Assembly: GCA_002502685.1 (NCBI GenBank)
Contig: DAQA01000029.1
Span: 4,957-68,956, forward strand
Length of the DNA stretch: 64,000 nucleotides
From: Euryarchaeota archaeon UBA202
GTDB lineage: Archaea; Thermoplasmatota; E2; UBA202
Reading direction: 5' to 3'
The notes under the pieces: model-generated
Seen by the model: the letters and a program-made list of their open reading frames with translations, nothing else
Database searches by the model: none
What the model was told of the DNA's origin: nothing
Part shown: positions 15,531 through 42,659 of the stretch, in pieces
Position numbering within the stretch: the first letter of the stretch is position 1
How the letters are laid out: each line of letters starts with the position of its first letter
Translations under genes and position numbers: made by a program

Positions 15531-16997
15531 ATGAATTATAAAGGCAAAGCACTAACTATTGCAGGGTCTGATTCTGGAGGAGGAGCAGGTATACAAGCTG
15601 ATTTAAAAACCTTTCACTCCTTTGGCATCTTTGGGATGTCAGTACTAACCTCCGTAACGGCACAAAATACTTTGGGTGTACATGCCATCTATGACCTTCC
15701 CGCTAGCATCATTGCCGCCCAGATTGATGCAGTCATGGAAGATATTGAGGTTGATGCTGTAAAGACAGGGATGATCTCCACTACAGAGATAATAGAGACG
15801 ATTGTGGACAGAATAAAAAAATATGAGATAAACCAGCTGATAGTAGATCCTGTCATGGTGGCTAAAAGTGGTGATCGGCTCCTCAGGAAGGATGCAAAAA
15901 CATCACTTGTAAAGAATCTGTTGCCTCTGTCTTTCCTGATCACTCCCAATGTACCCGAGGCGGAAATAATCAGCGGCACCAAAATCGTAAGTATGGAAGA
16001 TGCCAAGAAAGCAGCCAAGATCATCCAGGCACTAGGACCTACTTTTGTGCTTCTAAAAGGAGGTCATCTCTATGAAGAAAACGCCATTGATATCTTGTTT
16101 GACGGAAATACATATAAATATTTTAAAGCGGAGAGAATTGATACAGCAAACACACACGGAACAGGTTGTACATTATCTGCCTCTATCACCGCTTGTTTAT
16201 CCAAGGGAATGAATGTCCATGATGCCATCAAGGTTGCAAAGGATTATATTACTCGAGCCATACAATATGCCCCTGATAATATTGGGAAAGGAAGTGGGCC
16301 TCTTTATCACAAGATAAAACCACTTGAAATATCTGCTTTTGGAGAAGCAGCTGCGGACTTTGATGTCTGGTTTGACAAAAACAAAATTATTTTCGAATCA
16401 GAGCTCCTTGCCGAAAAACAACTACTCCCTAATCCTGAAAATACCGTGAGCATAGGAGTGGGAAGCGGCCTGTTTGCTTCTCAAATAGGCATCAAATATG
16501 GTGTTGAGCCAGCAGAAGATATGGCCAAACTAGCACGAAAAAGAGGAATCAAAGTGAAAACAGGAATCGCAGAAGAAGTACCTTATCCTGATAAGCAGTT
16601 TGATACAGTACTGCTCAGCACGGTGTTGAGCTATGTAAAGGATGCCCAAAAAGCTGTCAATGAAGCATATCGGATTCTGAAGCCGGGAGGTCATGTTGTC
16701 ATTTCTTTTTTAGCTGGTGAAGGATCCTATGCCATGCTCTATGAACTTGCGCATCTCCGGGGTAGGCATGATTCTGAAATATCGCCGCCGCATCCCTATC
16801 CTCTGCCTTTTATCAGAGGGGCAAACTGGTTGACAACAGATCGAGTTACTGCTCTCTTGCAGAATGCTGGTTTCACTGACTTGTGCTATGTGCAAACCCT
16901 GCGTCGTCATCCGAAATACTCCAATGAAAAAGTAGAAACACCTGTAGAAGGTTATAAAGAGGGTGATTTTATTGTTGTTCAGGGGAAGAAACCGTGA
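15531..16997 (+). CDS. thiD: Hydroxymethylpyrimidine/phosphomethylpyrimidine kinase (ThiD) fused to a C-terminal class I SAM-dependent methyltransferase domain (Methyltransf_11-like).
   Basis: N-terminal ALTIAGSDSGGGAGIQADLKTF plus a ribokinase-fold ThiD body. C-terminal motif I VSIGVGSGLFA, acidic EPAED, FDTVLLSTVL and the post-I region YRILKPGGHVVISF. Confidence 0.7.
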   Translation: MNYKGKALTIAGSDSGGGAGIQADLKTFHSFGIFGMSVLTSVTAQNTLGVHAIYDLPASIIAAQIDAVMEDIEVDAVKTGMISTTEIIETIVDRIKKYEINQLIVDPVMVAKSGDRLLRKDAKTSLVKNLLPLSFLITPNVPEAEIISGTKIVSMEDAKKAAKIIQALGPTFVLLKGGHLYEENAIDILFDGNTYKYFKAERIDTANTHGTGCTLSASITACLSKGMNVHDAIKVAKDYITRAIQYAPDNIGKGSGPLYHKIKPLEISAFGEAAADFDVWFDKNKIIFESELLAEKQLLPNPENTVSIGVGSGLFASQIGIKYGVEPAEDMAKLARKRGIKVKTGIAEEVPYPDKQFDTVLLSTVLSYVKDAQKAVNEAYRILKPGGHVVISFLAGEGSYAMLYELAHLRGRHDSEISPPHPYPLPFIRGANWLTTDRVTALLQNAGFTDLCYVQTLRRHPKYSNEKVETPVEGYKEGDFIVVQGKKP

Positions 16998-17653
16998 AGG
17001 TGACTGATTGCCTTAGAAGGGATGCTGACGTCATATGGCAGCATCTTGTTAGGCATCCTTTTGTAGTTGAATTATACAGTGGTGATTTGCCCCTGGATAA
17101 GTTTAAATTCTATATTCTTCATGACTATTACTATCTTACCACGGCGATGAAAAATTTTAGTCTCTTGGCTGCCAAAGCCCCTACAGTAGAGGATCTGAGA
17201 GATATCCTTGATATACTCCGTTTGGAGGCAGAGAGTGAATACGAAGGATACAAAAAATTTCTGTATCGCCTTGGATATTCGATACCGGAAGCTGTAAAAC
17301 AAGAACCCATTCCAATTAGTATTTCCTATGGCAGTTTTCTTCTTTCAACAAGCACTCTGAAATCATATCCGGAGGCTATAACCGCGGTGCTTCCTTGCTT
17401 TTGGTCCTATGCCGAAATTGCGGATTATCATGGTGATAAGCTACATGACAATAAAAACCAGTTGTACACAGATTGGGCCAAAGTTTATGGAACGGATTCC
17501 TATCGGGATTTGGTTGGAAAGATTAAACAATTGGTGAACCGTGTTGATGAAACCTGTCCTTATGATAAACTCTTGAGGATATTTACCCAAGCAAGCAGAT
17601 ATGAATACTTGTTTTGGAATGCAGTATATACCCAAGAGCAGTGGCCTATATAA
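16994..17653 (+). CDS. tenA: TenA-family thiaminase II / aminopyrimidine aminohydrolase.
   Basis: DKFKFYILHDYYYL and YAEIA... match the TenA/PqqC haem-oxygenase-like fold. GTG start overlaps the thiD stop (coupled). Confidence 0.65.
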   Translation: MKVTDCLRRDADVIWQHLVRHPFVVELYSGDLPLDKFKFYILHDYYYLTTAMKNFSLLAAKAPTVEDLRDILDILRLEAESEYEGYKKFLYRLGYSIPEAVKQEPIPISISYGSFLLSTSTLKSYPEAITAVLPCFWSYAEIADYHGDKLHDNKNQLYTDWAKVYGTDSYRDLVGKIKQLVNRVDETCPYDKLLRIFTQASRYEYLFWNAVYTQEQWPI

Positions 17654-20251: not shown

Positions 20252-23200
20252 CTAAGAGGATGATGTTATATCTACAGGTGGCGTCTCAGCAGTGATAGAG
20301 GGATTATACATATCATATGCCTTTACTCCCTGGATGGTTCCCTTAATGGGCTCGTTTGCTTCAAGCTGGTAATCAAAATGTACCCATTCCCCCCGTGCAA
20401 GACTTTCAATATATACCACTGCCTGTCTTCCCCTTATCTCAAAATTATCAATCGTATCATTGCCCAATAATGCACTAAAATCTGTAGAAACAAAGGAGAA
20501 ACCCACTGGAGCCCGAAGATCAATAAGAACCATGCGGGCACTCTCCGCGCTTCCATTATACATTAAGTCCACATGGGCCCAGAGCATATCAGATACTTTA
20601 ATTGATGTGGAATCATAGCTTACATTGATAATTAGTTCACGTGGTTTTTCTAGTGACACCAAATCCCAGGGGAGATATTGTTCAGAAAAGATTTGATAAA
20701 GGATGCTCCCATTTCCCTGTGCAGTAATCTCTATGGTGGCAACATCAGAAAGATAGGGACGTAAATCAATCAGGTATGTAACATCCTTGTTTTCGTCTGT
20801 CAGATCCAAAATGGCCACCGGTATATTATTGGCATAAATGTTGACCCGCATATCCTCGATTTCACCTGTTCCCTGTCCATTGAGAGCCTGTAAAGCAACA
20901 ACTGTATCCTGGGTGGATGAAAACCCTCCCATTTGATTTCTATGGTTCAAAAGATAACTGACAGCCCCTTTGATTATTCCTTCAGATCCGCCATGCTTTT
21001 GAAGCGCCATAATAGCATACGCAGTTGTTTCAATGGTATAGGTGCTCATTCCCCAAAATCGCGCTGTTTCAGTGTTTGAATACATATTATTTTCTGTTTC
21101 CCAATACATCGTTCCGTTGTCTTCATTTCGTAGCAAGAGTAGTTGACTGCAAATCCTGTCCTGCACACTCCTCTCCCCATTGGCGTCCTCTAGAACAATA
21201 AGTGCCAGGGCAAGGGTATAGGGATCATTCCAATGCTCATCGATATTTTCTTTAATGTACCCTAACGATTTTTTAATATGACTATCACTTTCATATCCAC
21301 TGTAGAGAAGTGATCGGGTGATATATGCCGTGGTCGCCACCTTTTTCATTTTAAGAATCGGATTAGTTGTTTCATATAATCCCCATTCAGGAAACCTATA
21401 GGATCCATCACTCATCTGTTGGTTGATGAGCCAGTTTTGCATGTCAGGGATAATTTTGTCATCAATGGTGAATCCTGTATTCTTGGCATCCTGAAATGTG
21501 AGAAGGCCCCATGAGGTTAACCAGGGATGTGGACTCTCCTCATGGGGGAACCAGACAATACCCCGTCCATCCTTATCCCGGACAAGATACATAAATTCAT
21601 GTTGTATCCCCTGGGTGACCATGGTTTCACTTTCAAAGAGTTGATCGGTTGTGATCCCGTCTTTTTTTAAGAGATTTTGATAGGCAAGGATATCAATGGC
21701 AAGCAAGGACATGGATTGTTCTCCGCATCCTGAAACAAAATTAAGAAATCCCTCGGCGCCATCTAGTATCACAGATTCCATTCCCCCCTGGATTTTGATG
21801 AAGGCGTTTTCACTGTTGGATATGCGTTCAGATGACAGGGGTATGATATGGGTCACTGTTTGGTTGTCTCTTAATTCACCATTTTCAATTTGTGTAATTG
21901 CTTTTCCATCCGGGTCTATCCTTATTTGTTTCACTATGGCATCGCTGTCTTCATTGGAGAGGGCGGTTATGGTAATATTATGGCTGCCGACACTGATGGG
22001 TCGAATAGTAAAAGCGACACCAGTGACACTATTTGGATGTATGGTAAGTGACTGCTTGCGTCTAGAGAGAAGATCATACCATTCGTCTTGTTCAATCTCC
22101 ACTGTCACTGTACTTGTTGTGTTGCCATAATTGTACACCAGGATATTTAGGGGGAACTCGTCATTCCTGATTGCTGCCACGGGGATATCGGGCTCAACAA
22201 AAAATTGTTTAAAGACCCGTATTTCCTGGTTTCCTACACCGATTTGTGCATCCATTGTGGAGGCAATGGCTTCAATATTCCAGGTGGTAATTGAATCCGG
22301 GGTGATTAGGGTGATATTTGCATTGCCCTGTTCATCTGTTATAATGAGGGGTTTCCAGTACCATGTCTCGGGAAAGAAATGTCTTACACGTTCTGGGGAA
22401 GTATCTTGTGCGCCATTACCCAATAAAATCGAATCCTTTACGAGGGCATCTTCCTCCCACCGACCCGTTATATTTACAAAAATATTTCCTCCTGGCCCAT
22501 CATTTCTATCTACTAGTCCAATATCACCTCCCATCCCGTCTTCCGTATCACTTGGTAAGGCTTGGTTCATTACCATGAACATACCGACACCACAAATACA
22601 AAGACCCAGGGTTGCCAGGGTGGCAAACATTTTTGTGTTCCCAAACACTTTACCGGCAAAATAAGTGGTTATTACAACCGCACAGACAATAAAGGCAATA
22701 AGCAGGGTCATCCAATAGACAAATATACTTTTTTCCTTGAATAATTGGGCATCCGCAAGGTATTTATCCGGGTTGCTAAGGACCATGTTTTCGTCTGTTT
22801 TAAAACTACTTTGGTCCACAAGATAGGGTGTTTCTCCTAAGGAGAGGATCCTTGTGGTATTAGTAAAGACATATTCATGAATCTCATATGCGGGAGTGAT
22901 AAATTCTTCCTCCAACTCAAAGTAAAGTTTTTCTAGACCCATAAAACGCTGGCTGACTTCAAAAACAGACTTGTCCACAATACTAATACCCATGGCGGCA
23001 ACCACGGGGTGTGATCCATCATCTACCTTGAACTGCAAGGTTATATTTTCGTGTGGTTCATACTCCTCCTGGGCAGTGTACACCTGCACATTTAAGGTAT
23101 CTGGTGATATTACCCCTATAACCGCGGTATCCCGTGCCACATTCAAATCTGGTTGTATCTTATAGGCTCGTATCTGGGTGAGAGGTATCATGTCAGGTGT

Positions 23201-24670
23201 CGCAATAATACTAAAATTTCCCTTCCCTTCACTGAGGGCGAGTCTGCCCGTGGTTGTCACAAAGCCGTTTGCTATCACGTCATAATAGACCCAATCGGTT
23301 GTACTGTTCCCTGTATAATATACTTCGCATTGGATATCATCACCCGCCAGATAATTTTCTTTATTGGGAATGACTTTAATACCTCGTGATCCAGTGAGGT
23401 CATGTTTGGAGACAATTCTTACATCATTTTTTATTACTTCAACCATAAGGGTGGTTTGATTGGTAAACAAAAAACTAAAATTGGCAATACCCCGTTCATT
23501 GGTCATTTTGCTTGTCATGTTTTTTCCATCAAGGAATACAGTCACCTGTGCATTATCCACAGCTACCCCGCAGGGATCCCGTACAATCACATAATACTTA
23601 GACAGGGTGTCTATGATATTGTTATCCCCAAGTGTGGTGATTACTAGTGAGTTATTTGCAAGGGGAATGATATGGGTCTCATTTTCCATATGTCCCCCGG
23701 TGTCCTCTACAGTGATTTGTAACTGAATTATCCCATTCTGGTTCCATACTGGAAGAGTCACAGCATAATTAACGGGTGGTAAAGTAAACTTAAATTCCCC
23801 ATTTGTTAGTTTTCCTTTCACCCCCGCCACATTTCCCCATTTCCCCAGATAGGTAGAAGCATTAATTTGGACAGTACCCTCCACCGCTTTACCAAAAAAG
23901 TATCTACAGGAAACAGCACCGGTGATGGATTCATTAATAAGATACCACGGTTTCATATCTTCAACCTCGATACTAAACTTGGGAAGAACATATTTTTCAA
24001 CCATAACCACCGTCTGGGTTTCCTCGCCACCTACCCGTGCCGTTATTTTATAATTACCCATGGGTAATTGATCAGAAAGAAAAAAATCATACTCTGTGAT
24101 CCCATACTCATTATCAGGTTGCAAAAATTCCTTTGCCATAAGGTTTCCCTCAGGATCCGCTATCGATAACTCTACTATGTCATCTGAGGCAACGGGATCA
24201 ATATTTTCATAGGTAAGCATCCTGATATGGATTGTTTGACCGGGCTGATAGAGGGGCTTATCCGTAGAAAGAAGAATCCGATGGATATCTACAATAGAGA
24301 TATCCTTCCTGATCTTTTCATCTCCAACCGTGACCACAAGTTTTCCCTCTCCCGTAATATTGGGAACAGTAAAGAGAGGTTTCACATATCCACCGTCATC
24401 CATCTTTCCCTCATAAAGATTAAATGTTTCATCCCCAAGGATAACATCAACAGTAACCTTTTCATCTGATGGAACACCCTTGATATCATGGGCAAGGACA
24501 AGGAGGGATGACTGAGAATTACTAAACAATTTCGAAGGCATATTCACCGTCACTAGATTTTTACTTGAAAGATAGAGGTCATCAGCAGTATAAGCCATGG
24601 CCCCGGAAGCTACAATGATACATCCAATGGCAATAATAAGCCATGTCTTTTTCCCAAGCATATTTTTCAT
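20252..24670 (-). CDS. Alpha-2-macroglobulin-family thioester-containing protein. The ORF extends to 24757; the likely start is MKNML at 24670.
   Basis: Canonical thioester motif FVSGCGEQSMSLL and TED-domain NWLINQQMSDGSY (QQxDGS). Signal/TM IIAIGCIIVASGAMA. About 1,470 aa with long MG-like beta regions. Two hydrophobic helices in mid-protein (LLIAFIVCAVVITTYFAG / LATLGLCICGVGMFMVM). Confidence 0.75.
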   Translation of the reverse strand: MKNMLGKKTWLIIAIGCIIVASGAMAYTADDLYLSSKNLVTVNMPSKLFSNSQSSLLVLAHDIKGVPSDEKVTVDVILGDETFNLYEGKMDDGGYVKPLFTVPNITGEGKLVVTVGDEKIRKDISIVDIHRILLSTDKPLYQPGQTIHIRMLTYENIDPVASDDIVELSIADPEGNLMAKEFLQPDNEYGITEYDFFLSDQLPMGNYKITARVGGEETQTVVMVEKYVLPKFSIEVEDMKPWYLINESITGAVSCRYFFGKAVEGTVQINASTYLGKWGNVAGVKGKLTNGEFKFTLPPVNYAVTLPVWNQNGIIQLQITVEDTGGHMENETHIIPLANNSLVITTLGDNNIIDTLSKYYVIVRDPCGVAVDNAQVTVFLDGKNMTSKMTNERGIANFSFLFTNQTTLMVEVIKNDVRIVSKHDLTGSRGIKVIPNKENYLAGDDIQCEVYYTGNSTTDWVYYDVIANGFVTTTGRLALSEGKGNFSIIATPDMIPLTQIRAYKIQPDLNVARDTAVIGVISPDTLNVQVYTAQEEYEPHENITLQFKVDDGSHPVVAAMGISIVDKSVFEVSQRFMGLEKLYFELEEEFITPAYEIHEYVFTNTTRILSLGETPYLVDQSSFKTDENMVLSNPDKYLADAQLFKEKSIFVYWMTLLIAFIVCAVVITTYFAGKVFGNTKMFATLATLGLCICGVGMFMVMNQALPSDTEDGMGGDIGLVDRNDGPGGNIFVNITGRWEEDALVKDSILLGNGAQDTSPERVRHFFPETWYWKPLIITDEQGNANITLITPDSITTWNIEAIASTMDAQIGVGNQEIRVFKQFFVEPDIPVAAIRNDEFPLNILVYNYGNTTSTVTVEIEQDEWYDLLSRRKQSLTIHPNSVTGVAFTIRPISVGSHNITITALSNEDSDAIVKQIRIDPDGKAITQIENGELRDNQTVTHIIPLSSERISNSENAFIKIQGGMESVILDGAEGFLNFVSGCGEQSMSLLAIDILAYQNLLKKDGITTDQLFESETMVTQGIQHEFMYLVRDKDGRGIVWFPHEESPHPWLTSWGLLTFQDAKNTGFTIDDKIIPDMQNWLINQQMSDGSYRFPEWGLYETTNPILKMKKVATTAYITRSLLYSGYESDSHIKKSLGYIKENIDEHWNDPYTLALALIVLEDANGERSVQDRICSQLLLLRNEDNGTMYWETENNMYSNTETARFWGMSTYTIETTAYAIMALQKHGGSEGIIKGAVSYLLNHRNQMGGFSSTQDTVVALQALNGQGTGEIEDMRVNIYANNIPVAILDLTDENKDVTYLIDLRPYLSDVATIEITAQGNGSILYQIFSEQYLPWDLVSLEKPRELIINVSYDSTSIKVSDMLWAHVDLMYNGSAESARMVLIDLRAPVGFSFVSTDFSALLGNDTIDNFEIRGRQAVVYIESLARGEWVHFDYQLEANEPIKGTIQGVKAYDMYNPSITAETPPVDITSSS

Positions 24671-24926
24671 ACAAACATTATCTGATTTTAAATAATAAAT
24701 ACTCTTATAACGTTTGGTGACCACCAAACCTCCTTTGCGCAAACAACTTGTCACCAACTATTCCGGCAGCATCCCATTTTTTTTTTCTATCATACGCGCG
24801 CTATTCTCCCCTAGCAATGGTGCTGTTTATCCTTCTCCACCGTTGTAGAAAAATGGTTCATCTAGATTGTACAAGGGTACCAAAAACCACACAAAGATCA
24901 TTATGCCAAATATTAATAACCCGTGA

Positions 24927-25859
24927 TTGAATATATCGCATATCTTCATGGACTCATTCCAAAAACATCTCAAAAAAGATAGTTTTCCTATAACATTTGA
25001 GCCAGATTCACCCAAGGGGACACAACTCACAAATTATCTTACCCTTGACATCCCCTCAAAAATAGCTGCGTTTTGTCTTTACAATAATCCCCGGGGTGAA
25101 CCTCGCCTGGATCCCTTTGTCTATGGAAAAAAATTAAGGGACATCTACAAAAAGGATATTATCGCAAATATACGTATACAGGATTACAGTATCCCCCTTT
25201 TCCAAAGCATTCTTTGGGGAGGATACAATCTGGGCATAAAAAACCTCTTAATGGTCACCGGTGACTATCACCATCACAGTCCCTTTCTCCTCGATGTAAC
25301 CGAGGGACTCACTGGCATCACTGCCTATCTGAATCAGGGCTATTTTATGCCCGAGTTAAAGGAAACAGCACAAAGATACCACAACCGTTATCTTGATACA
25401 AAAAAAGTTTTTTCACCCAAAACATGTGAGGGAAAAACTTCCTTTTTTGTTGGATCAGCCCTGGTGGCAACACGAAGAAAAGAAAAAGAGATATACCACA
25501 AAAAAATACAAGCAGGAAGCCAGTTTTTTATGACCCAACTCACCTATACACCCACAGATATCATTAACTTCATGGAAACCATAAATCCCACAAAGCCAAT
25601 ACTCGTGGGGTCAGGCCCCATTACCTCCCTAAAAACAATACGTTTTTTCAAGGAACAATTAAATATTCCGGGTCTGTCTCCTCGCCTCATCAACCGGCTA
25701 AAACAATCAAAGGACATGGGTAAAGAATCAGTGCACATCTGTACTGAAATGTATCATACCCTCAGAGATTTTGCCCGAGAAAATAATTACCTCCTAGGTG
25801 CACATGTGATGTCCATTCGAAAACCCCAATTAGCCCTGGAAATAATCAAGGAAATCTAA
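24927..25859 (+). CDS. Hypothetical protein, possibly a methylenetetrahydrofolate reductase (MetF)-like TIM barrel. First gene of the MtrAH/MetE operon.
   Basis: FPITFEPDSPKG loosely resembles the MetF SFEFFPPK motif. Its stop is 4 nt before the MtrA-like start. Confidence 0.3.
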   Translation: MNISHIFMDSFQKHLKKDSFPITFEPDSPKGTQLTNYLTLDIPSKIAAFCLYNNPRGEPRLDPFVYGKKLRDIYKKDIIANIRIQDYSIPLFQSILWGGYNLGIKNLLMVTGDYHHHSPFLLDVTEGLTGITAYLNQGYFMPELKETAQRYHNRYLDTKKVFSPKTCEGKTSFFVGSALVATRRKEKEIYHKKIQAGSQFFMTQLTYTPTDIINFMETINPTKPILVGSGPITSLKTIRFFKEQLNIPGLSPRLINRLKQSKDMGKESVHICTEMYHTLRDFARENNYLLGAHVMSIRKPQLALEIIKEI

Positions 25860-25862
25860 GTC

Positions 25863-26429
25863 ATGACAACAAAATATTATCCCTGGCCTGGCGATTTCAC
25901 CCCGTGTCACCCCACCGGTTCTGTGGCAGCAGTATTATTATCCACCGACTATATACCCTCACAAACTGTTGCTATTTATGGACACGTTAAAACAGAAAAC
26001 ATTGGCCTAGAAAAAATCATGGCCAATGTCATCTCCAATCCCCATATCCGCTACCTCGTACTGATTGGAAAAGATATCCGTGGTCATTTACCCGGCTCAT
26101 CACTCAAGGCACTCCACCAACATGGAATTGATCATACCAATAAAATCAATACCGCCCCCGGCGCAATCCCCTATATCGAAAACCTCTCAGAGGATGCTGT
26201 TAAAAGATTTCAAAACCAAGTAGTTATCATTGACCTCATGAATATTGCGGATAAGAACCGTCTTGATAATAAAATAAATGAACTTATCAACACGTCCCCT
26301 TCCTGCTACGGCGACCCCTTCATCGCACTGCGCCTGACGGTCATCTACAGTAAGCCAAGGGATGATAAAAGGGCATTACATTCAAAAATTATTATAGATT
26401 GGAGAGGAAAGATAAAAAAAAGGAGATAA
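25863..26429 (+). CDS. MtrA-like corrinoid-binding protein: soluble homologue of tetrahydromethanopterin S-methyltransferase subunit A, lacking the C-terminal TM anchor.
   Basis: VKTENIGLEKIMANVISNPHIRYLVLIGKDIRGHLPGSSLKALHQHGID closely matches the conserved MtrA core ([22 protein letters not shown]...GHITGQ...AL..NG). Confidence 0.65.
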   Translation: MTTKYYPWPGDFTPCHPTGSVAAVLLSTDYIPSQTVAIYGHVKTENIGLEKIMANVISNPHIRYLVLIGKDIRGHLPGSSLKALHQHGIDHTNKINTAPGAIPYIENLSEDAVKRFQNQVVIIDLMNIADKNRLDNKINELINTSPSCYGDPFIALRLTVIYSKPRDDKRALHSKIIIDWRGKIKKRR

Positions 26430-26430
26430 C

Positions 26431-27327
26431 ATGTTTTCTTTCACCCAGGAACAAAAAGTATTTCGTATCGGTGGCATCTCTATTGGAGGGCAACCCGGTG
26501 AACACCCCACGGTTCTTTTTGGCGGAGTATTTTTTAAAGGGGCACCCCGCCTTAAAGAAGCAAAAAAAAATCTTGATGACATGTTGGCACTAAGTCACAC
26601 CACACATATACCGGCTATCCCTGATTTTTTTATTCGATATGAAAAACATATCCCTCTTATTATTGATTTTATCAATTCTGCTCTCCCCTCCCACCATCCC
26701 TTCTCTGTTGACATCATTGATCCCCACCTGAAACCACAAGTTCTCAGCCACCTTGCAAAACATGATCTCCTCCACCGTACCATCTATAACTCGATACATA
26801 TAGGTATCACTGAAAAGGAAAGAAAAACCCTGCATAAATATCCCCCTGCCATGGCAATCATTTTAGCATTCAACCCCAAAGATAACTCCCCGGATGGAAG
26901 ACTTGAAATACTAGAAAATAGCGCCCATCTTCTCAATAAAGGTCTTCTAGAAATATCTAGAGAAGCAGGTATTGAAAAACTGTTAATTGACACTGCGGCA
27001 ATGGCACCAGGGGAAAATAGCGGCGCAGCCATTGCTGCCATCCCGGTAATCAAGGAAGAATATGGTCTACCTGTTGGCTGTGCCATCCATAACGTGGTGG
27101 AAAAATCTCATTGGCTTACATCCTTTAAGAAATCCATTGTTGATGCATCATCAAATACCACTATCCCCCTGTTTGGAGGCGATTATGTGCTTTATGGGCC
27201 ACTTACGCTCTCTTCGTCTGTGTTTCCCTTGATTGCCTGGGAGGATATTCTTATTTCAGAATATGTCGAGAACTACTTTGGGGTAAAACCCTGCGATGGG
27301 CATCCGCGAAAAAGGTTTTTTCCATGA
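26431..27327 (+). CDS. MtrH-like methyl-tetrahydropterin:corrinoid methyltransferase (pterin-binding TIM barrel).
   Basis: N-terminus MFSFTQEQKVFRIGGISIGGQPGEHPTVLFGGVFF parallels MtrH (FGGQPGEYPT). About 300 aa. Confidence 0.6.
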   Translation: MFSFTQEQKVFRIGGISIGGQPGEHPTVLFGGVFFKGAPRLKEAKKNLDDMLALSHTTHIPAIPDFFIRYEKHIPLIIDFINSALPSHHPFSVDIIDPHLKPQVLSHLAKHDLLHRTIYNSIHIGITEKERKTLHKYPPAMAIILAFNPKDNSPDGRLEILENSAHLLNKGLLEISREAGIEKLLIDTAAMAPGENSGAAIAAIPVIKEEYGLPVGCAIHNVVEKSHWLTSFKKSIVDASSNTTIPLFGGDYVLYGPLTLSSSVFPLIAWEDILISEYVENYFGVKPCDGHPRKRFFP

Positions 27328-28217
27328 TTCCTCAAACCACCATTATCGGTTCCTATCCTCTTTTTCCCAATAGAGGAAAAATTATGCAGAATTATTTTCA
27401 TCACTATACGTGTGATTCATGGAAACCACTCATTCAACAAGTAATAGATGATCTCAATACAGCAAGGATTGATATTCTCTCTGACGGACAAACACGTGAT
27501 CCTTTTGTCCAGTTATTTGCCCGAAAACTAAAAGGATGCCGCCTTAGAAACCGAGTTGAAATTATAGATGACATAGGGTACACCAAACCAATAACAGTAG
27601 ATGATCAAAGATATATCCAGTCCTTTATCCCCCAAGAAAAGCAATTAAAGGGTGTTATTACGGGTCCCTATACCCTGGCCAAATCATGCATTGATCTATA
27701 TTACCATGATGAGCAAGAGGTGGCTTTTTCTTTTGCCCATGCACTTAGAAAAGAAGTGGAGGAAATGCAATCATCAGTTGATATTTTGGGGATTGATGAA
27801 CCCTTTTTTTCTGTCTCTTTTCCTGAATATGCCCGAGATCTGATAGGTATCCTTACACATAACATCTCACTTCCTACCCTTCTGCACGTCTGTGGAAATG
27901 TGTCATCCGTTGTCTCCAAGATTTTTGATTTACCCGTTGACACTCTTTCTCATGAATTTAAGGCACGCCCTGATCTTTTTGACGTACTCCAAGATTTTTC
28001 TTTTCCCCAATCATTGTGTATCGGTTGTGTTCGATCGGATGATACACGTATCGAGCCTGTTCAAGAAATTACTTCCCATATCCAAAATGCTCTGGATCTT
28101 TTTGGTGAAAAGATACAGTATCTCTCTCCTGATTGTGGTCAACGGTCACTCCCCCGTGATGTAGCCTATCATAAGCTTGATAATCTTGTACAGGCTAAGG
28201 AGGCATTGAATGGATGA
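27324..28217 (+). CDS. metE: Core methionine synthase: MetE C-terminal (catalytic) domain only, a corrinoid/methylcobalamin:homocysteine methyltransferase.
   Basis: IIGSYPLFPNRG, LHVCGNVSSVV and a C-terminal SPDCGQRSLPRD (Zn-binding Cys region of MetE). About 300 aa, as in short archaeal MetE. Overlaps the upstream stop. Confidence 0.6.
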   Translation: MIPQTTIIGSYPLFPNRGKIMQNYFHHYTCDSWKPLIQQVIDDLNTARIDILSDGQTRDPFVQLFARKLKGCRLRNRVEIIDDIGYTKPITVDDQRYIQSFIPQEKQLKGVITGPYTLAKSCIDLYYHDEQEVAFSFAHALRKEVEEMQSSVDILGIDEPFFSVSFPEYARDLIGILTHNISLPTLLHVCGNVSSVVSKIFDLPVDTLSHEFKARPDLFDVLQDFSFPQSLCIGCVRSDDTRIEPVQEITSHIQNALDLFGEKIQYLSPDCGQRSLPRDVAYHKLDNLVQAKEALNG

Positions 28218-28530
28218 TATTCCTTGCATACAGGCTAAAAAGACACCACCCAAGGATGTCCAGTTGGATAAAGAAGGATTTTTTGTTATAGAAATAGTTG
28301 ACAAAGAAGTCCGGGTTGAATATTACTCCAATATCTATAAAAAAGGGAAGATAGTATCCGGAAAACTCAAGGCAATCTTTGTGGGTACACAGGCAGATGC
28401 ATTGTGTGACACCATAGCGCGTCATATTCCTTCTTTATATCCGGGGCATTATCTCTATCTTGGCCGAGAACTTCAAAGGGCGGAAGAGGCTTTGATGAGT
28501 GGAAAAAAATATGTCCAGGATGGCTGCTGA
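28210..28530 (+). CDS. Small hypothetical protein (106 aa), translationally coupled to the core-MetE gene (ATGA overlap).
   Basis: Start overlaps the metE stop. No recognisable motif. A GGCCT...AGGCC hairpin plus T-run follows at about 28555-28610, a possible terminator. Confidence 0.4.
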   Translation: MDDIPCIQAKKTPPKDVQLDKEGFFVIEIVDKEVRVEYYSNIYKKGKIVSGKLKAIFVGTQADALCDTIARHIPSLYPGHYLYLGRELQRAEEALMSGKKYVQDGC

Positions 28531-28656
28531 AGTGGAAGGGTACTTCACTTGGCCTTTACTGCGTAGAAAACAAACAGGCCTTAAAGGTAACTTTTTTCTT
28601 TGGCCTGGTTGCCTAGTGATTCCTTAGACGACTCCTCTTTTTTTTAGCTGGGGATA

Positions 28657-30264
28657 TCAAGTAAATAATGCCATTAAGTGAGGTATTATGATAAGTGAAA
28701 GAATTAAGGCTAATACCGCTAGTGAGATGAGAAAGGTTATTTTTCCTGCTATTTTTTCTTCTTGTTCCTTTTTAATATTTTTCTTTATCTTTTTTAATAA
28801 TATTGCGATCCCATCCTTTAAAAGATAACCCCCATCAAGGGGTATAGCGGGAAGGGCATTAAATGTTCCCAAGGCAAAATTTAACCAGAAAATCCAATAG
28901 ATGCTGTCACCCAGTCCCCAAAACAGTGATTTGGGTAATATGGACAGGGGTCCTGTTATTTTATACAGATTGCTCATCTCATCTGGAAAGGGTGACAGTC
29001 CCTGAAAGGGGAGAGTTATATAGGTGAAAAATCCGGATAGAGACGATGCAGGATGTACTAAAGCATCTATTAATGCTTCAGGGGAGGAAACCATGATGCC
29101 CAAAGGGAGAATATTGATTCCCAAAAAGCCCACATTAGTGTATTCTTCCTTGTTTTTGCCAGGGTAATATTTCTCATAATACTCGTATTTGTCACCCAGT
29201 GTTACTGTTTTGTTATAAAAAGTATAATTCTTTGTTTCCTGGTGATAACTAACCCCTTCGATATATATGGTTTTTCCCGCCCTAGTTGTATTCATGATGG
29301 TATTAAACTCTTCTTCATTTGTTACAAGTGTTCCATTGATCGTTTCTATAATGTCTCCCACTCTTATCCCCGCTTTATCAGCGGGGTATCCTTCTGCAAC
29401 AACAGCGATTACCAATCCACCCATAATGGTTTGTGTCTGAAAATTATTATCATGATAAAAAGTGAAGGTATAGTTTTTTGTGGGTTGCAGGCTAGCGGCT
29501 ACTTTGTCAAAATCATCAACATCTTTTATGGATTGTTCATCAATAGAGGTGATTAATGTCCAGGGTTCAATATCCAAAACATCGGCGGGACTGTTTTCAA
29601 TGATGCCCACCGCAAGGGTTCCATTATGGTGTGGTGACACGCTTGCCATGAAACCTAAGGAAAACACAAGGGCGCAGATAAACGCTAGAACCAAATTGGA
29701 TGACGGCCCCATTGCAAAAATACGCATCCGTTTCTTTTTGTGAATTTTCTCCATCTGTTTTTCATCGGGTTCCACAAATGCCCCAAGGGGTATAATCATA
29801 TACATGATCCCCAGGGCTTTAATCTTTATGTTTCCCACCATGGCCAGAATTCCATGTGAAAATTCATGAATAATGATGGCAATGATGATTCCCACAATTA
29901 AATAGGGAATAGATGAAAGGGGTATGAGGGGGTTAACACCAGGGAGAAGAAGCAACATTTGTGGTGTTGGTGCCTGCTCAGCTGGAATGCTAAACGAGAG
30001 GGTCATTTCCCATATAAGAAGTGCCATCATGGCAAACATGGCCATAAAGCAGAGGAAGACACCGAAATTTGCAAAATGTGTCCAAAAGAGTTTTGGCTGT
30101 GACAAAAATTTAATAATCTTTTTCCCCCGGGGTGTCCTCCACATCAGGACAGGACCCCACAAAGAAAGGTTGTATTTTTTTAACATCCCCCGGGTTTTTA
30201 CAATATAAAGTAAGAGAAACCAAAAAGATAGGATTATCAATAGCAGGGGCAGCAACCCAGGCAT
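28657..30264 (-). CDS. Site-2 protease (M50 family) intramembrane zinc metalloprotease with PDZ domain(s).
   Basis: HExxH in TM helix IIAIIIHEFSHGILA. Second motif ALPAIPLDGGYLLKDG (LDGG). Multiple TM helices. The central soluble region has PDZ-like G-hydrophobic-G loops. Confidence 0.75.
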   Translation of the reverse strand: MPGLLPLLLIILSFWFLLLYIVKTRGMLKKYNLSLWGPVLMWRTPRGKKIIKFLSQPKLFWTHFANFGVFLCFMAMFAMMALLIWEMTLSFSIPAEQAPTPQMLLLLPGVNPLIPLSSIPYLIVGIIIAIIIHEFSHGILAMVGNIKIKALGIMYMIIPLGAFVEPDEKQMEKIHKKKRMRIFAMGPSSNLVLAFICALVFSLGFMASVSPHHNGTLAVGIIENSPADVLDIEPWTLITSIDEQSIKDVDDFDKVAASLQPTKNYTFTFYHDNNFQTQTIMGGLVIAVVAEGYPADKAGIRVGDIIETINGTLVTNEEEFNTIMNTTRAGKTIYIEGVSYHQETKNYTFYNKTVTLGDKYEYYEKYYPGKNKEEYTNVGFLGINILPLGIMVSSPEALIDALVHPASSLSGFFTYITLPFQGLSPFPDEMSNLYKITGPLSILPKSLFWGLGDSIYWIFWLNFALGTFNALPAIPLDGGYLLKDGIAILLKKIKKNIKKEQEEKIAGKITFLISLAVLALILSLIIIPHLMALFT

Positions 30265-30460: not shown

Positions 30461-30976
30461 GTGAACCAAAAATGGATCAATGTCATGGTTGTTGCCATAA
30501 TCGTGGTAACACTCGCCTTTGGCTTCACCTGGATTATCCGAGAGGAACACAAATCCATCCAGGATCTACAATTGAGCCTTAGGGGCATCAAACTCATTGG
30601 TTTTAAATTCACCCCAGGAAGACTTTTACCCTCGGGTATGACCCTGGAAATGGCATTAGATGCCCATAATCCCAATGACCTAGATGTAGCCATCTATGAT
30701 CTTGAATATGGTGTATTTATCAACGATATATTTGTGGGGAACGGATCATTAAGTGAGAAAGAAAAGATTACTATCCCCCAAAATCAAACACGAGAAATCA
30801 CCATATCATATACTGCTAACCTAACCGTTCTTCCTGCGGTTGCCATCACAACCATACAAAATATTATCGATAAAGAAGAGAGTTATTGGGAAATCATTGG
30901 CATCGTCTATGTAGATACACCCCTAGGCAAGGACACATATCCCTTTTCATGGACCTATTCACCCCTAGATTCGTGA
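30461..30976 (+). CDS. Membrane-anchored LEA_2/NDR1-like (water-stress/Hin1-like) domain protein.
   Basis: N-terminal TM (VMVVAIIVVTLAFGFTWII) followed by a roughly 140-aa beta-rich domain. Weak family recognition. Confidence 0.3.
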   Translation: MNQKWINVMVVAIIVVTLAFGFTWIIREEHKSIQDLQLSLRGIKLIGFKFTPGRLLPSGMTLEMALDAHNPNDLDVAIYDLEYGVFINDIFVGNGSLSEKEKITIPQNQTREITISYTANLTVLPAVAITTIQNIIDKEESYWEIIGIVYVDTPLGKDTYPFSWTYSPLDS

Positions 30977-31023
30977 TAGATTTTTATAGCAACATAATAT
31001 TCTTTATTATGGTGATAAATGAT

Positions 31024-32931
31024 ATGAAAACCAAAATCCTTGTCATCCCGGTTTTAATAATTCTTCTGACAAGCACAATCACCCTTGCCCATAGAGACAT
31101 AAATGACACACAGGAACTCTCCCTAACACACCATTTTTCACCGCCCTTAATTACAGATGATGGAAACTCGGTAAGTATCTCCATACCTGAAGCCTCCTCA
31201 TGTGATTATACCCCGGGTGAGCCTCTTCTCCCTGTTCATACAGAAATACTACCTTTCCCCATAGGGACCCATATAACAAAAATCATGAGCGCCCCCAGCA
31301 CCATTCATACCGTATCTCTTCCAAAACAAATACAAAAAACCCCTGATCCTTTCTCCCTCACCACACATTATCCTTCCTCAAATCCAGGCACTACAGCACC
31401 AGTCACAGCTCCCTCTCCTGTTCAATGGTATAGCTTCCATTTGGGGATTGGAAGGCATGAAAACAATCCCACTCTTTTTCTATCCCTTACCGTGTACCCC
31501 TGTCAATATAACGCTTTAACCAACGAATTATACTATATACAGGACATAACCTTCTCTATCCAGTACACCACCCCCCAGGCCCTCCTGTCCCTTCCAGATG
31601 GCTATAATCTGCTTATCATTTCTCCTGTCCAGTTTCACACTGACCTTCAAAATTTAGTTTCCCATAAAGAAAGCCATGGCCTTAAAACCAAACTGGTGAC
31701 CACTGAAGAAATCTATACCGGTGACTATTTCCCGGTCATGGGTAGGGATGATGCAGAAAAAATCAAATATTTCATAAAAAACGCTCTTGAGGAATGGGGC
31801 ATTGATTACGTGCTCTTGGTTGGAGGGTTAACCTCACAAATAATGGGTGACACCTGGCACGCCCCCGTGAGATATTCACATCTTGTTACCACGGGTGGAT
31901 ATGGTGAAAAAAGCTACCTGACAGATCTTTATTTTGCAGATATATACAAAAGTGACGACCAGGGCAACCCGGTCTTTGATGACTGGGATTCAAATGGAAA
32001 TAATATATTTGCGGAATGGCCCCGGTTTGGCAGTAGGGATGAACTAGATTTGTACCCCGATGTCTATGTCGGCCGTCTTGCCTGTCGGAATACACAGGAG
32101 GTACAAACAGTCATAGACAAAATCAAAACCTATGAAAACACACAGGATCCATCATGGTTCAAGCGATTGGTGCTCGCCGGGGGAGACACCTTTAATGATC
32201 AAACGGGACATAACTATTATGAAGGAGAAATCTCCAATCAACGGGTCTTGGAGATCCTTTCCAGCTTTGAGGCACAACGTATCTGGTATACCCTAGATAA
32301 TTTTAAACAAAAAAATATTGTGGATGCCATTAGCAAGGGATGTGGATTCGTCCATCTTTCCGGTCACGGAAGCCCAGGTATGTGGATGGCTAAGGACTTC
32401 ACCGATGACCCCCAGGGGGAATACCTCTTGGGTCTGGATGTCTATCACATGCCTCAATTATCCAACAAGGACCAATACCCCATCGTGGTAATTGGAGGCT
32501 GCCATAACAGCTTGTTTAATGTCACCTTCCTGGGAAGCCTCATAGGTTGCATCAAATCACTCACTGGGTCCCCCACATGGTATTGGATGCCCATCCCTGA
32601 ATGTTTTGGGTGGTGGCTGGTCAAGCAGCCCCAGGGCGGTGCCATTGCAACTCTTGGTTGCACGGGTCTTGGTTTAGGAACAATTGGTGATTCCAACCAG
32701 GATGATATCCCTGATGCTCTCCAGTTTTTGCTAACATGGCTTGAACTTCGTTTTTTTGAGGCATATGCACAGGACAACATTACCATGTTAGGGCACACAT
32801 GGGGAACTGCCATAACTGACTATATCCATACCTTTGATTGTTATCGGGATAAAGGAGACCAAAAAACAGTGGAAGAATGGATTCTCCTCGGTGATCCCTC
32901 CCTTATGATAGGAGGATATCCCATCTGCTAG
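31024..32931 (+). CDS. Secreted clan-CD cysteine peptidase, C25 gingipain-like. The ORF extends to 30886; the likely start is MKTKIL at 31024.
   Basis: Signal peptide MKTKILVIPVLIILLTSTITLA. His GFVHLSGHGSPGMW and Cys IVVIGGCHNSLFN. YVLLVGG and PDVYVGRLACRN are shared with 4781..6616. Confidence 0.65.
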   Translation: MKTKILVIPVLIILLTSTITLAHRDINDTQELSLTHHFSPPLITDDGNSVSISIPEASSCDYTPGEPLLPVHTEILPFPIGTHITKIMSAPSTIHTVSLPKQIQKTPDPFSLTTHYPSSNPGTTAPVTAPSPVQWYSFHLGIGRHENNPTLFLSLTVYPCQYNALTNELYYIQDITFSIQYTTPQALLSLPDGYNLLIISPVQFHTDLQNLVSHKESHGLKTKLVTTEEIYTGDYFPVMGRDDAEKIKYFIKNALEEWGIDYVLLVGGLTSQIMGDTWHAPVRYSHLVTTGGYGEKSYLTDLYFADIYKSDDQGNPVFDDWDSNGNNIFAEWPRFGSRDELDLYPDVYVGRLACRNTQEVQTVIDKIKTYENTQDPSWFKRLVLAGGDTFNDQTGHNYYEGEISNQRVLEILSSFEAQRIWYTLDNFKQKNIVDAISKGCGFVHLSGHGSPGMWMAKDFTDDPQGEYLLGLDVYHMPQLSNKDQYPIVVIGGCHNSLFNVTFLGSLIGCIKSLTGSPTWYWMPIPECFGWWLVKQPQGGAIATLGCTGLGLGTIGDSNQDDIPDALQFLLTWLELRFFEAYAQDNITMLGHTWGTAITDYIHTFDCYRDKGDQKTVEEWILLGDPSLMIGGYPIC

Positions 32932-36940: not shown

Positions 36941-37864
36941 ATGGGAAAAGGTAAAGGGTTTGGAAAAGTCATTTTATTCAATGAACATTTTGTGGTCTAT
37001 GGCATACCTTCCATTGTTTCAGCAATTGATCTAAAGACAACAGCGGTAGTGGAAAAACATACAAAAAATCAAGTGATACTAGATGATCAAAGACCTGCCA
37101 CAAAAGGGTACAAAGAGGAAAAAAAGAAACACCGGAAGGAATCACTCAATCGTATATTAAAAAAAATGGAGAAAGAAAATCATCCTTTAAAAATCACCCT
37201 GGGAGGTAACCTGGTGGCAGCAAGTGGTATTGGTGCCAGTGCAGCCTCATGTGTAGCAATTGCTCGGGCTATAAATGAGGAATTCAACATGGAGCTCACT
37301 GAAGAAGAGATTAACGCCGTAGCCTTCGAGGGCGAAAAGGGATATCATGGATCTCCTTCAGGGGTGGATAATACCGCCGCCACCTATGGTGGTCTTATCT
37401 GGTTTAAAAAAGGGGCTCCTGATGTCATGGAACGTTTGAAGATAAAGACCCCTCTTGGGATTGTCATGGGGAATACTGGGGTGGTCGCCAATACAAAACT
37501 AGCTGTAAAAAATGTTCGCCAAAAAAAAGAGAAATATCCCTGCCTCTATGAAAAAATTTTTACCCATGCAGAACAAGTTGTTGAGCACGCAAAGGAGGCC
37601 CTCATGTCATATAATCTTACAGAGCTAGGGGAATGTATGAACAAAAATCATAGCCTTCTACAAAAAATAGCTGTATCAAATAAAAACCTGGATTTTTTGG
37701 TACAATTAGCCCGGGAAACAGGAGCCTTGGGAGCAAAATTAACAGGGGGAGGATTGGGGGGCTACATGGTGGCCTTAACTCCCGGGAGTACTCTTCAGGA
37801 AAAGGTAGCCCGAGCCATCACTCGTGAAGGATTTTATGCCCTTAAAACCCGGATAGGTGTTTAA
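36941..37864 (+). CDS. mvk: Mevalonate kinase (GHMP kinase).
   Basis: N-terminal GKVILFNEHFVVYG. ATP-loop GGNLVAASGIGASAASCVA. C-terminal GAKLTGGGLGG. Confidence 0.85.
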   Translation: MGKGKGFGKVILFNEHFVVYGIPSIVSAIDLKTTAVVEKHTKNQVILDDQRPATKGYKEEKKKHRKESLNRILKKMEKENHPLKITLGGNLVAASGIGASAASCVAIARAINEEFNMELTEEEINAVAFEGEKGYHGSPSGVDNTAATYGGLIWFKKGAPDVMERLKIKTPLGIVMGNTGVVANTKLAVKNVRQKKEKYPCLYEKIFTHAEQVVEHAKEALMSYNLTELGECMNKNHSLLQKIAVSNKNLDFLVQLARETGALGAKLTGGGLGGYMVALTPGSTLQEKVARAITREGFYALKTRIGV

Positions 37865-39139
37865 ATGAATCTAGGAGATTTTGTAAAGGAACTACGTAAA
37901 AAAGATATGATAAAAACGATTCATAAAGAAGTGGACGTGCAATATGAAATTGCAACGATATTAAAGCAACTTGATGGTACTCCTCTTTATTTTGACAAAG
38001 TAAAAGGTTTTTCAATGCCTGTTGTGGGAAATATTTGTTCCACACGAGAATTAGTCTCTCTAGGGTTGCAAATCAAAAAAGAAGACATTATCCCTCATCT
38101 TTCACAGGCGATTGCCCATCCCCGGGATCCCGTTGTTACTCAGCCCAAGAATTATCATCAGATATCGCCTGATTTGTCAAATCTCCCTATTTTGACATAT
38201 TATCCCTTCGATGGAGGCCCCTATATCGCCTCTGCAGTCATTGTTGCAGATGACGCTGATTACGGTTTAAATGCCTCATATCACCGATTGATGGTCATTG
38301 GTCATGATAAAATCGTCATGAGGATCCTCCCGCGTCATTTCCATGAATATCTCACACGGGGTTTACAGGAATTTGCTATCTGTATTGGTAATTCCATCCC
38401 GGTTTTACTGGCATCAGCAGTGTCAACATCCATTCAGGTTAGTGAACTTAGTATAGCAAATGCATTACTTGAAGAACCCCTTATTGAGCTTGATGGCCAC
38501 CGGGTTCCTGAATCCGAGATAGTGATGATCGCTGAGATGACCGAAGAGAAACATGAGGAAGGGCCTTTTTTGGACTTAACCGAAACACCAGATATTGTCA
38601 GGCAACAACAAGTAGCACAAATAAAAAAGACATATGTTAAGGAAAAACCTGTTTTTCATGCTCTTTTACCCGGGGGTCTTGAACATAAAGTTTTAATGGG
38701 AATGCCCCGGGAACCAACGATTTATAATGAGGTCAATCAGGTGTGTCATTGCAATGATGTTTTCATAACACCCGGTGGTTGCTCCTGGCTTCACGGAGTT
38801 GTAGGCATCACCAAGCATCATCCTGATGATAGCAAAAAGGCCATAGAGGCGGCATTCAAGGGGCATAACTCCATGAAACATGTCTTTGTTGTGGATGATG
38901 ACATAAACATACATGATCCCAATGAGGTTGAATGGGCAATGGCCACCCGATTCCAGGGGGACAAAGATATGATTATTAGACAAGAAAAAGGGTCTTCCCT
39001 TGATCCATCCTCCGATCTTGAAACACGACAAACTACCAAAATTGGCTTTGATCTTACCATCCCCTGGGGTCAAGATCCTAAAAAATTTAAAAAGCCGGAA
39101 TTATCGCTGGCAATCAAGGCAGATGACTACCTAGATTGA
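37865..39139 (+). CDS. UbiD-family (prFMN-dependent) decarboxylase. A candidate trans-anhydromevalonate-5-phosphate decarboxylase of the archaeal alternative mevalonate pathway.
   Basis: UbiD-fold length (424 aa). Position immediately after mvk and upstream of the aconitase-X dehydratase/IPK genes. Confidence 0.6.
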   Translation: MNLGDFVKELRKKDMIKTIHKEVDVQYEIATILKQLDGTPLYFDKVKGFSMPVVGNICSTRELVSLGLQIKKEDIIPHLSQAIAHPRDPVVTQPKNYHQISPDLSNLPILTYYPFDGGPYIASAVIVADDADYGLNASYHRLMVIGHDKIVMRILPRHFHEYLTRGLQEFAICIGNSIPVLLASAVSTSIQVSELSIANALLEEPLIELDGHRVPESEIVMIAEMTEEKHEEGPFLDLTETPDIVRQQQVAQIKKTYVKEKPVFHALLPGGLEHKVLMGMPREPTIYNEVNQVCHCNDVFITPGGCSWLHGVVGITKHHPDDSKKAIEAAFKGHNSMKHVFVVDDDINIHDPNEVEWAMATRFQGDKDMIIRQEKGSSLDPSSDLETRQTTKIGFDLTIPWGQDPKKFKKPELSLAIKADDYLD

Positions 39140-42653: not shown

Positions 42654-42659
42654 TTTTCG

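Follow-up and report, generated by a model that had tools for sequence, protein, structure and literature searches.

A putative five-gene operon coupling soluble MtrA- and MtrH-like proteins to a MesA-like core methionine synthase in an uncultured Thermoplasmatota archaeon

The MesA proteins of methanogens (MTH775 type; Schroeder & Thauer 1999; PMC7857596) consist of the catalytic core of the methionine synthase MetE without its folate-binding domain, and since 1999 it has been an open question which methyl donor the MesA-type core methionine synthases use physiologically. Schroeder and Thauer, as they are cited in PMC7005905, thought that the methanogen enzyme might draw its methyl group from a corrinoid protein; Price et al. 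found MesA only in methanogens and predicted from co-occurrence that MtrA is the donor (PMC7857596), and adjacency of MesA and MtrA "in a few genomes" has already been noted (PMC11378808). Here we describe five genes at positions 24927-28530 (+ strand) of a 64,000 bp stretch of DNA (the whole analysed stretch, called the window below) from contig DAQA01000029.1 of the uncultured Thermoplasmatota archaeon UBA202, in which translational coupling ties a MesA-like gene to its own dedicated, soluble homologues of mtrA and mtrH and to a gene for a DUF4346 protein, a coupling that the methanogen mesA genes do not have (0/9 loci, below). We think it likely that the five genes are one operon whose products are the separate subunits of a methionine synthase that is soluble, cobamide-dependent and dedicated to this task, a functional analogue of MetH assembled from other parts, and by its sequence the cassette may be the non-methanogen counterpart of the proposed route by which MesA takes methyl groups from MtrA.

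Several other described systems share parts of this arrangement. The overall chemistry would be that of MetH, including its split forms, in which a methyl group passes from a methyl-pterin to Co(I) and from the resulting CH3-Co(III) to zinc-activated homocysteine. MtrH is a distant homologue of the module with which MetH binds its pterin (PMC4632066). The MtrA fold of the B12 carrier binds cobalamin in another mode than the B12 domain of MetH (PMC4915002), and the operon further differs from MetH in that its homocysteine module is of the MetE type, not the MetH or betaine-homocysteine methyltransferase (BHMT) type, it has no S-adenosylmethionine (AdoMet) reactivation domain, and it is spread over four or five separate polypeptides. 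Searches of the five operon proteins with Pfam and NCBIfam gave no match to MetH-type domains (S-methyl_trans, classical B12-binding and AdoMet activation), and the likeness to MetH is functional only. The Na+-pumping methyl-tetrahydromethanopterin (methyl-H4MPT):coenzyme M (CoM) methyltransferase of methanogens (the Mtr complex, MtrA-H) has homologues in the operon of its two soluble catalytic components, MtrH (methyl-pterin to corrinoid) and MtrA (corrinoid carrier with a His ligand), but the operon has neither the membrane subunits nor the MtrA anchor (188 versus ~240 amino acids), its predicted acceptor enzyme is a MetE core and not MtrE/CoM, and it has no energy coupling. The Dehalococcoides core MetE called MesB has as its donor the Wood-Ljungdahl pathway's corrinoid iron-sulfur protein (PMC7005905), unlike the MtrA-like protein considered here, and MesB and MesC are separate core-MetE families with <30% identity to MesA (PMC7857596) for which no linkage to MtrA, MtrH or DUF4346 is reported. 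The CoP-MtrH-metE cluster (CoP, corrinoid protein) of "Ca. Methanomethylicus mesodigestum", for which Loh et al. raised an anabolic role (PMC7886697), pairs MtrH with a metE homologue as the operon does. Ruegeria has a split methionine synthase/glycine-betaine methyltransferase, MtgBCD (PMC12478193), which is likewise modular and corrinoid-dependent, but bacterial and aerobic. Both of these link methionine synthesis to a stand-alone corrinoid protein and to a pterin methyltransferase, but their corrinoid proteins are of the MttC/MtgC type with a classical B12-binding domain, not MtrA, and no linkage to DUF4346 or to an MTHFR-like protein has been described for them. The mtxXAH genes of Methanosarcinales include, like the operon, a soluble MtrA/MtrH paralogue pair away from the mtr operon; its function is unknown, and it differs in that it clusters with mtxX instead of a MetE core or DUF4346, and in being confined to some methanogens.

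The five co-directional open reading frames (ORFs), all on the + strand, are as follows: ORF1 (24927-25859; 310 amino acids from a TTG at 24927) encodes a methylenetetrahydrofolate reductase (MTHFR)-like protein, ORF2 (25863-26429; 188 amino acids) a soluble MtrA-like corrinoid (cobamide-binding) protein, ORF3 (26431-27327; 298 amino acids) an MtrH-like methyl-pterin:corrinoid methyltransferase with a dihydropteroate synthase-like barrel, ORF4 (27324-28217; 297 amino acids) a core, single-domain, MesA-like MetE, and ORF5 (28210-28530; 106 amino acids) a small PterinBD-DUF4346 protein. A preliminary description of this DNA had reported five ORFs with 4-nt gaps or overlaps; all five are present and tightly coupled, but the exact spacing, in order along the operon, is 3 nt and then 1 nt between genes, followed by overlaps of 4 nt (ATGA) and 8 nt. 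It had named four of the five, as a putative MTHFR-like protein, a soluble MtrA corrinoid protein (from which it quoted the peptide TENIGLEKIMANVISNPHIRYL, found in ORF2), an MtrH-like methyl-pterin:corrinoid methyltransferase and a MetE with only the catalytic core, and these four names agree with the domain matches, structural matches and residues given below, while the fifth ORF, which it left nameless, is the PterinBD-DUF4346 protein. All five proteins score above the Pfam gathering cut-offs: ORF1 against MTHFR (PF02219) with 44.2 bits (cut-off 24), over its C-terminal half only; ORF2 against MtrA (PF04208) with 153.8 bits (cut-off 25; profile positions 13-158 of 173); ORF3 against MtrH (PF02007) with 182 bits (cut-off 22.8; profile positions 1-293 of 299, essentially full length); ORF4 against Meth_synt_2 alone, with 113.5 bits (cut-off 21) and no Meth_synt_1/folate-binding domain; and ORF5 against PterinBD-DUF4346 (PF14251) with 76.3 bits (cut-off 29.6; profile positions 1-86 of 86). 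None of the five reaches an NCBIfam equivalog cut-off, so we treat them as divergent members of their families and not as orthologues of characterised enzymes. No transmembrane segment is predicted from hydropathy in any of the five, and none has a paralogue within the window. The preliminary statement that no other methanogenesis genes are visible in the window is borne out by Pfam scans of ~40 further window ORFs, which found none, and judged from these 64 kb the host is apparently not a methanogen.

How well are the residues that would carry out such a methyl transfer conserved? The best Protein Data Bank (PDB) match of ORF2 is 5LAA (E 2e-40), the cytoplasmic cobalamin-bound MtrA homologue of Methanothermus fervidus, in which the cobalt ligand His84 is held by Glu54 and Ile111 (PMC4915002). 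His75, Glu45 and Ile102 of ORF2 align to these three residues, and the equivalents of His75 and Glu45 are invariant in 54 operon-linked MtrA homologues. The maximum 19-residue hydropathy of ORF2 is 1.10 and there is no C-terminal membrane helix; since no segment is hydrophobic enough for a membrane helix, ORF2 is predicted to be soluble. Its score against the canonical MtrA equivalog TIGR01111 (143.9 bits) lies below the cut-off of 249.15. The PDB matches of ORF3 are 9qtp, which is MtrH of the Mtr complex (E 5e-43), and, nearly as good, 6sj8, the methylcorrinoid:tetrahydrofolate methyltransferase of Desulfitobacterium (D.) hafniense (E 3e-36), and ORF3 scores below the cut-offs of the MtrH equivalog TIGR01114 (194.3 bits; cut-off 271.4) and of MtgA NF047990 (142.6 bits; cut-off 550).

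The best NCBIfam model for ORF4 is NF002119 (227.4 bits), which represents MesA: against it the proteins of methanogens reach 390-472 bits, the other operon-linked core MetEs 244-288 bits, straddling its cut-off of 258 bits, and the catalytic subunit of a split MetE 111 bits. ORF4 keeps the zinc ligands H188, C190, E211 and C271 and the substrate residues S10, Q56 and D158; the same zinc and Ser/Gln/Asp positions are listed as defining by Price et al., where Gln in place of Glu484 marks MesA and MesC (PMC7857596), and because both the zinc tetrad and S10/Q56/D158 match that list we call the signature of ORF4 MesA-type. The tetrad and the Ser/Gln/Asp set are thus common to ORF4 and MesA, and for both an MtrA-type corrinoid protein is the predicted donor. 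By homology to the characterised methylcobalamin:homocysteine methyltransferase, ORF4 would be a zinc-dependent methylcorrinoid:homocysteine methyltransferase. Close homologues are from uncultured Thermoplasmatota, and a tblastn search of the window with the subunits of split MetE gave no other match, so that no split partner is present there. A separate family of operon-linked MetEs was considered and dropped, as in a neighbour-joining tree their monophyly apart from methanogen MesA is found in only 9/100 bootstraps; because the tree fails to separate the two, ORF4 is called MesA-like and no new family is proposed.

The conservation of the arrangement was examined in a scan with a core-MetE profile over one genome per GTDB species, which gave 80 loci, 71 of them from non-methanogens and 9 from methanogens. 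These loci were searched with the five window proteins; the window's own genome stands outside the 80, its motif RIDILSDGQT not being matched by the search pattern. Among the non-methanogens, MtrH is encoded immediately upstream of the core MetE at 62/63 of the loci that have enough upstream sequence (60/63 by script; at L052 and L075, where the genes overlap the MetE start, it was added by hand), MtrA upstream of it at 55/59 and DUF4346 directly downstream at 54/66, while no partner gene was found nearby at any of the 9 methanogen MesA loci (Methanocaldococcus, Methanobacterium and Methanoregula). The cassette is present in Thermoplasmatota, Altiarchaeota and Ca. Saliniplasma, and in metagenome-assembled genomes (MAGs) labelled Methanomassiliicoccales, Undinarchaeota and Aenigmatarchaeota, with core-MetE identity to the window protein going down to 35%. 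Three loci had the MtrA-MtrH-core MetE-DUF4346 cassette in different neighbourhoods, and as the order MtrA-MtrH-core MetE(-DUF4346) recurs in ~60 species-level genomes whose flanks are unrelated, chance is far from sufficient to account for it. Clustering of all ORFs of the 71 loci gave lineage-specific neighbours only, namely an OB-fold protein, DUF1616/DUF58/MoxR, PAS sensors and an aldehyde dehydrogenase, as well as unannotated ORFs of 706, 524 and 364 amino acids.

Two kinds of local variation were seen in these neighbourhoods. Altiarchaeota-type and related loci have additional genes within or behind the cassette (L046 4850-6970 and 7916-9502, L052 7921-10606, L054 5522-6196), namely a 706-amino-acid ORF between MtrH and MetE, and ORFs of 524-528 and 364 amino acids between MetE and DUF4346, all with faint Pfam matches or none; these could be extra components (e.g., an activase) or unrelated insertions. 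In four Methanomassiliicoccales-labelled MAGs (L044, L047, L053 and L058) the cassette is followed by a gene for a large multi-PAS/GAF sensor protein.

ORF1 is the more variable partner. All 14 of its 14 aligned homologues begin at the position of the ATG at 24948, which makes the TTG at 24927 an improbable start, and the true protein probably has 303 amino acids. Its AlphaFold model (pLDDT 86.6) was compared with the PDB by Foldseek, and the top 50 matches are all MTHFR or MTHFR-like TIM barrels, of both the FAD-dependent and the FAD-independent type (Thermus thermophilus: E 2e-14, TM 0.72). The motifs E18, TGD106 and TQ197 are invariant across the family alignment and, assigned by eye, resemble the catalytic Glu, Asp and Gln of MTHFR; the score against the NAD(P)H-dependent MetF equivalog TIGR00676 (29.8 bits) is below its cut-off of 293.7. 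The family is small (15 clusters). In other Thermoplasmata its gene and a two-gene split MetE form a convergent pair (L008 6001-9001, L009 1692-8955, L010 6001-8989), and at L009 it also follows HcyBio-AbpE-Asd-aspartate kinase in a compact methionine-biosynthesis island; because of these neighbours we take the family to belong to the methionine pathway. It may supply methyl-pterin to whichever methionine synthase a genome has, and in the lineage of the window the MtrA/MtrH/core-MetE module would then take the place of the split MetE beside it. An MTHFR-like gene lies directly upstream of MtrA at 8/48 non-methanogen loci; this five-gene form, with 22-33% identity of the MTHFR-like protein, is that of L032, L033, L045, L067, L070, L073, L078 and L080, the last of which is labelled Aenigmatarchaeota.

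For ORF5 the predicted structure (pLDDT 88.9) consists of two helices with a sheet of three strands packed against them, for which no informative structural or sequence neighbour was found; nine residues are invariant in 51 operon-linked copies. The DUF4346 domain also occurs fused to other proteins: a whole-library search with the core MetE gave representatives of 407-431 amino acids, six of which are a core MetE with a C-terminal DUF4346 (P0143, P0148, P0154, P0184, P0185 and P0186), NCBIfam NF002128 is a 390-amino-acid MtrA with a C-terminal DUF4346, and TIGR00284 is a dihydropteroate-synthase-like protein ending in DUF4346. On account of these gene fusions we propose, speculatively, that DUF4346 serves as a small subunit for docking or as an adaptor, and no other step of the model is as weak. 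The term "DUF4346" occurs in no paper in the literature searched.

Taken in order, the proposed cycle would run as follows: The MetF-family reductase ORF1 would convert a methylene-pterin into the 5-methyl-pterin (tetrahydrofolate, H4F, or an archaeal analogue), the MtrH-like barrel would transfer the methyl group to the Co(I) of a cobamide that the soluble MtrA-like protein binds in the His-on state, and the core MetE would activate homocysteine on its zinc and take the methyl group from CH3-Co(III) to give methionine; DUF4346 might, as a speculation, hold these partners together. A relay from methyl-pterin through an MtrA-bound corrinoid to homocysteine had been put forward in the preliminary description, and the kept residues, the predicted solubility, the gene order and the MTHFR-like neighbours support it.

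A number of points weigh against this assignment. The case rests throughout on comparative inference, and the direction of methyl flow is putative. ORF4 scores 227 bits against the 258-bit MesA cut-off and has 31-35% identity to methanogen MesA homologues, while membership of MesA has been given as ~40% identity or more to a characterised enzyme (PMC7857596); with score and identity this low, its predicted substrate depends on the seven conserved residues. ORF3 scores alike against H4MPT and H4F enzymes, so the pterin may be either H4F or H4MPT-like. No corrinoid reductive activase (RamA-like) was found in or beside the cassette at 70-71 loci when all ORFs were clustered. With an MTHFR-like gene at only 8/48 loci, the supply of methyl-pterin is usually encoded elsewhere. 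Finally, the view is that of a 64-kb window, and a second methionine synthase, a B12 supply, or mcr and mtrB-G genes may lie elsewhere in the genome.

Could the same genes serve another purpose? Orphan mtrAH genes have been read in print (the "MALP" of Methanomassiliicoccales, PMC6147122; PMC10804542) as part of a methyl-pterin:CoM (or other thiol) methyltransferase of methane or methyl metabolism, in which the MetE-like protein would be an MT2 enzyme like MtaA or MtbA, and ORF4 does have faint matches to URO-D/MtaA-type methylcobamide:CoM methyltransferases (23-26 bits). These matches are, however, >200 bits weaker than that to the methionine-synthase model, and the Ser/Gln/Asp ligands of the homocysteine alpha-amino and carboxylate groups are kept; the window has no methanogenesis genes that we could see, SG8-5-type Thermoplasmata with mtrAH lack both mcr and the Wood-Ljungdahl pathway, and the cassette is also found in Altiarchaeota and in DPANN-labelled MAGs. 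We regard CoM methylation as very improbable. Co-location might instead reflect shared regulation only, the core MetE using free methylcobamide or another corrinoid protein while MtrA and MtrH bring methyl groups into or out of a Wood-Ljungdahl-type pathway, which is how "MtrAH remnants" are commonly read; non-methanogen MtrAH have been hypothesised to funnel methyl groups into that pathway (PMC9635834); that the methanogen MesA genes do without linkage to mtrA or mtrH (0/9) fits this idea. Against it stand an invariant order with overlapping stop and start codons, kept down to ~35% identity across phyla as is typical of the subunits of one system, fusions that tie DUF4346 to both MetE and MtrA, the lack of the Wood-Ljungdahl pathway in SG8-5 genomes with mtrAH, and the very high Km of characterised core MetEs for free methylcobalamin (~240 µM; PMC7005905), and we think such mere co-regulation quite unlikely.

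The proposed relay could also run backwards, as a catabolic demethylase in which methyl groups from methionine or another methyl-thioether (methylmercaptopropionate, dimethyl sulfide) pass to the MtrA-like corrinoid and by MtrH to the pterin, to be oxidised by the MTHFR-like protein and feed one-carbon units in a peptide-fermenting archaeon. The many secreted peptidases and an amino-acid permease in the window suggest a proteolytic lifestyle, the MtrH-family enzyme of D. hafniense works from corrinoid to pterin, and methylthiol:corrinoid transfer is known from the Mts systems of methanogens. On the other hand, demethylation of a thioether such as methionine by Co(I) is thermodynamically unfavourable, the amino-acid-binding Ser/Gln/Asp set points to homocysteine or methionine and not to small thiols, the MTHFR-like gene elsewhere in Thermoplasmata adjoins a split MetE and homocysteine-biosynthesis genes, which is a biosynthetic context, and for a cassette that is also present in reduced DPANN-like genomes a biosynthetic role is simpler. 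Such a reversal seems to us unlikely, and methionine synthesis remains the reading that we prefer.

The boundaries of the operon are clean, as both flanking genes run on the opposite strand: upstream is a giant alpha-2-macroglobulin (A2M)-like protein gene (20252-24757, - strand; 1501 amino acids with MG2, A2M and TED domains) and downstream an M50 peptidase gene (28657-30264). An AT-rich, TATA-like box read from the sequence, ATATTAATAA (24910-24919, + strand), lies ~30-38 nt upstream of the ATG at 24948 and is a putative archaeal promoter element, and purine-rich Shine-Dalgarno-like motifs (AAGGAAA, AAGGAGA, AAGGAGG) are present 4-14 nt upstream of three of the four internal starts; the MetE start has only a weak AAAGG as such a motif. 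Two oligo-T tracts (T6 at 28592-28597 and T8 at 28638-28645, + strand) in the 126-nt convergent intergenic space after the last stop are likely archaeal terminators of the operon. A scan for sigma-70 promoters and terminators gave matches at or below the expectation from shuffled sequence and is uninformative, as the host is archaeal, and tRNA and Rfam scans of the window had no matches.

Elsewhere in the window there are peptidase and transporter genes, thiamine genes and the genes of a mevalonate pathway of the archaeal kind. The modified mevalonate cluster (36941-45419, + strand), which confirms an archaeal host, comprises genes for a GHMP kinase, a UbiD-like decarboxylase, AcnX (phosphomevalonate dehydratase type), an isopentenyl phosphate kinase of the amino-acid-kinase fold, an FMN-dependent IDI2-like enzyme and a polyprenyl synthase. 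There are two C25 (gingipain-type) and one papain-family peptidases (4781-6616, - strand; 8689-9951, + strand; 30886-32931, + strand), and these together with the A2M-like protein suggest a protein-degrading lifestyle and a bacterial-type protease-inhibitor system in an archaeon. At 15531-17653 (+ strand) a 488-amino-acid fusion of ThiD (phosphomethylpyrimidine kinase) with a class-I SAM methyltransferase, unusual in a thiamine-salvage pair, is followed by an overlapping TenA gene. The stretch 52000-58700 has a low GC content (0.33-0.37 versus ~0.41 elsewhere in the window), contains a DDE transposase gene (57572-58663) and a 514-amino-acid ORF without a Pfam match (55284-56828), and may be a mobile insertion, and at 60188-60916 (- strand) a small protein with cohesin and type-I dockerin domains, which are cellulosome-type modules, is encoded on this archaeal contig.

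How much of this was already known? The preliminary description made the idea look newer than it is: MtrA as the donor of MesA had been predicted (PMC7857596), with the adjacency noted as well (PMC11378808). The literature searched contains no description of the full cassette, its breadth, or its links to a MetF-like gene and to DUF4346, and the principle is thus partly anticipated (Price 2021/2024, Loh 2021) while the composition and distribution are not. Other papers describe non-methanogen MtrAH as "unclear", "unknown" or methyl-CoM-forming (including PMC6147122 and PMC10804542). In published reconstructions the mtrAH genes of environmental Methanomassiliicoccales appear as methyl-CoM-forming enzymes; MAGs of the same label carry the cassette.

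A wider reading is possible, which we put forward tentatively and judge a little less apt to hold in full than to fail in some part. It is that the cassette, with the MetF-like gene optional, is complete in itself and a cobamide-dependent methionine synthase of a type not characterised before, which has converged on MetH and is the main such enzyme in many anaerobic archaea that have not been cultured (Thermoplasmatota, Altiarchaeota, environmental Methanomassiliicoccales and some DPANN). On the same reading most "orphan mtrAH" genes that have been reported as remnants of methanogenesis or as methyl-CoM-forming enzymes would be this biosynthetic system, DUF4346 would be a docking subunit new to corrinoid methyl relays, and the soluble arm of Mtr would share ancestry with a methionine synthase.

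A MesA-like gene occurs here in a window without visible methanogenesis genes, with relatives in Thermoplasmatota, Altiarchaeota and DPANN MAGs, and the coupling of such a gene to MtrA, the presumed donor, and to the presumed loader MtrH in ~60 species is the strongest genomic support so far for MtrA as the donor of such enzymes. As a compact set of four or five genes the cassette is directly reconstitutable, and DUF4346 gains from it a concrete, testable context. It likely explains "orphan" mtrA and mtrH genes that are usually taken for traces of methane metabolism. If this is true, metabolic reconstructions that read mtrA and mtrH as methyl-CoM formation, as remnants of methanogenesis or as "unknown" would change, and abundant sediment archaea would have a B12-dependent methionine synthesis, which bears on cobamide cross-feeding.

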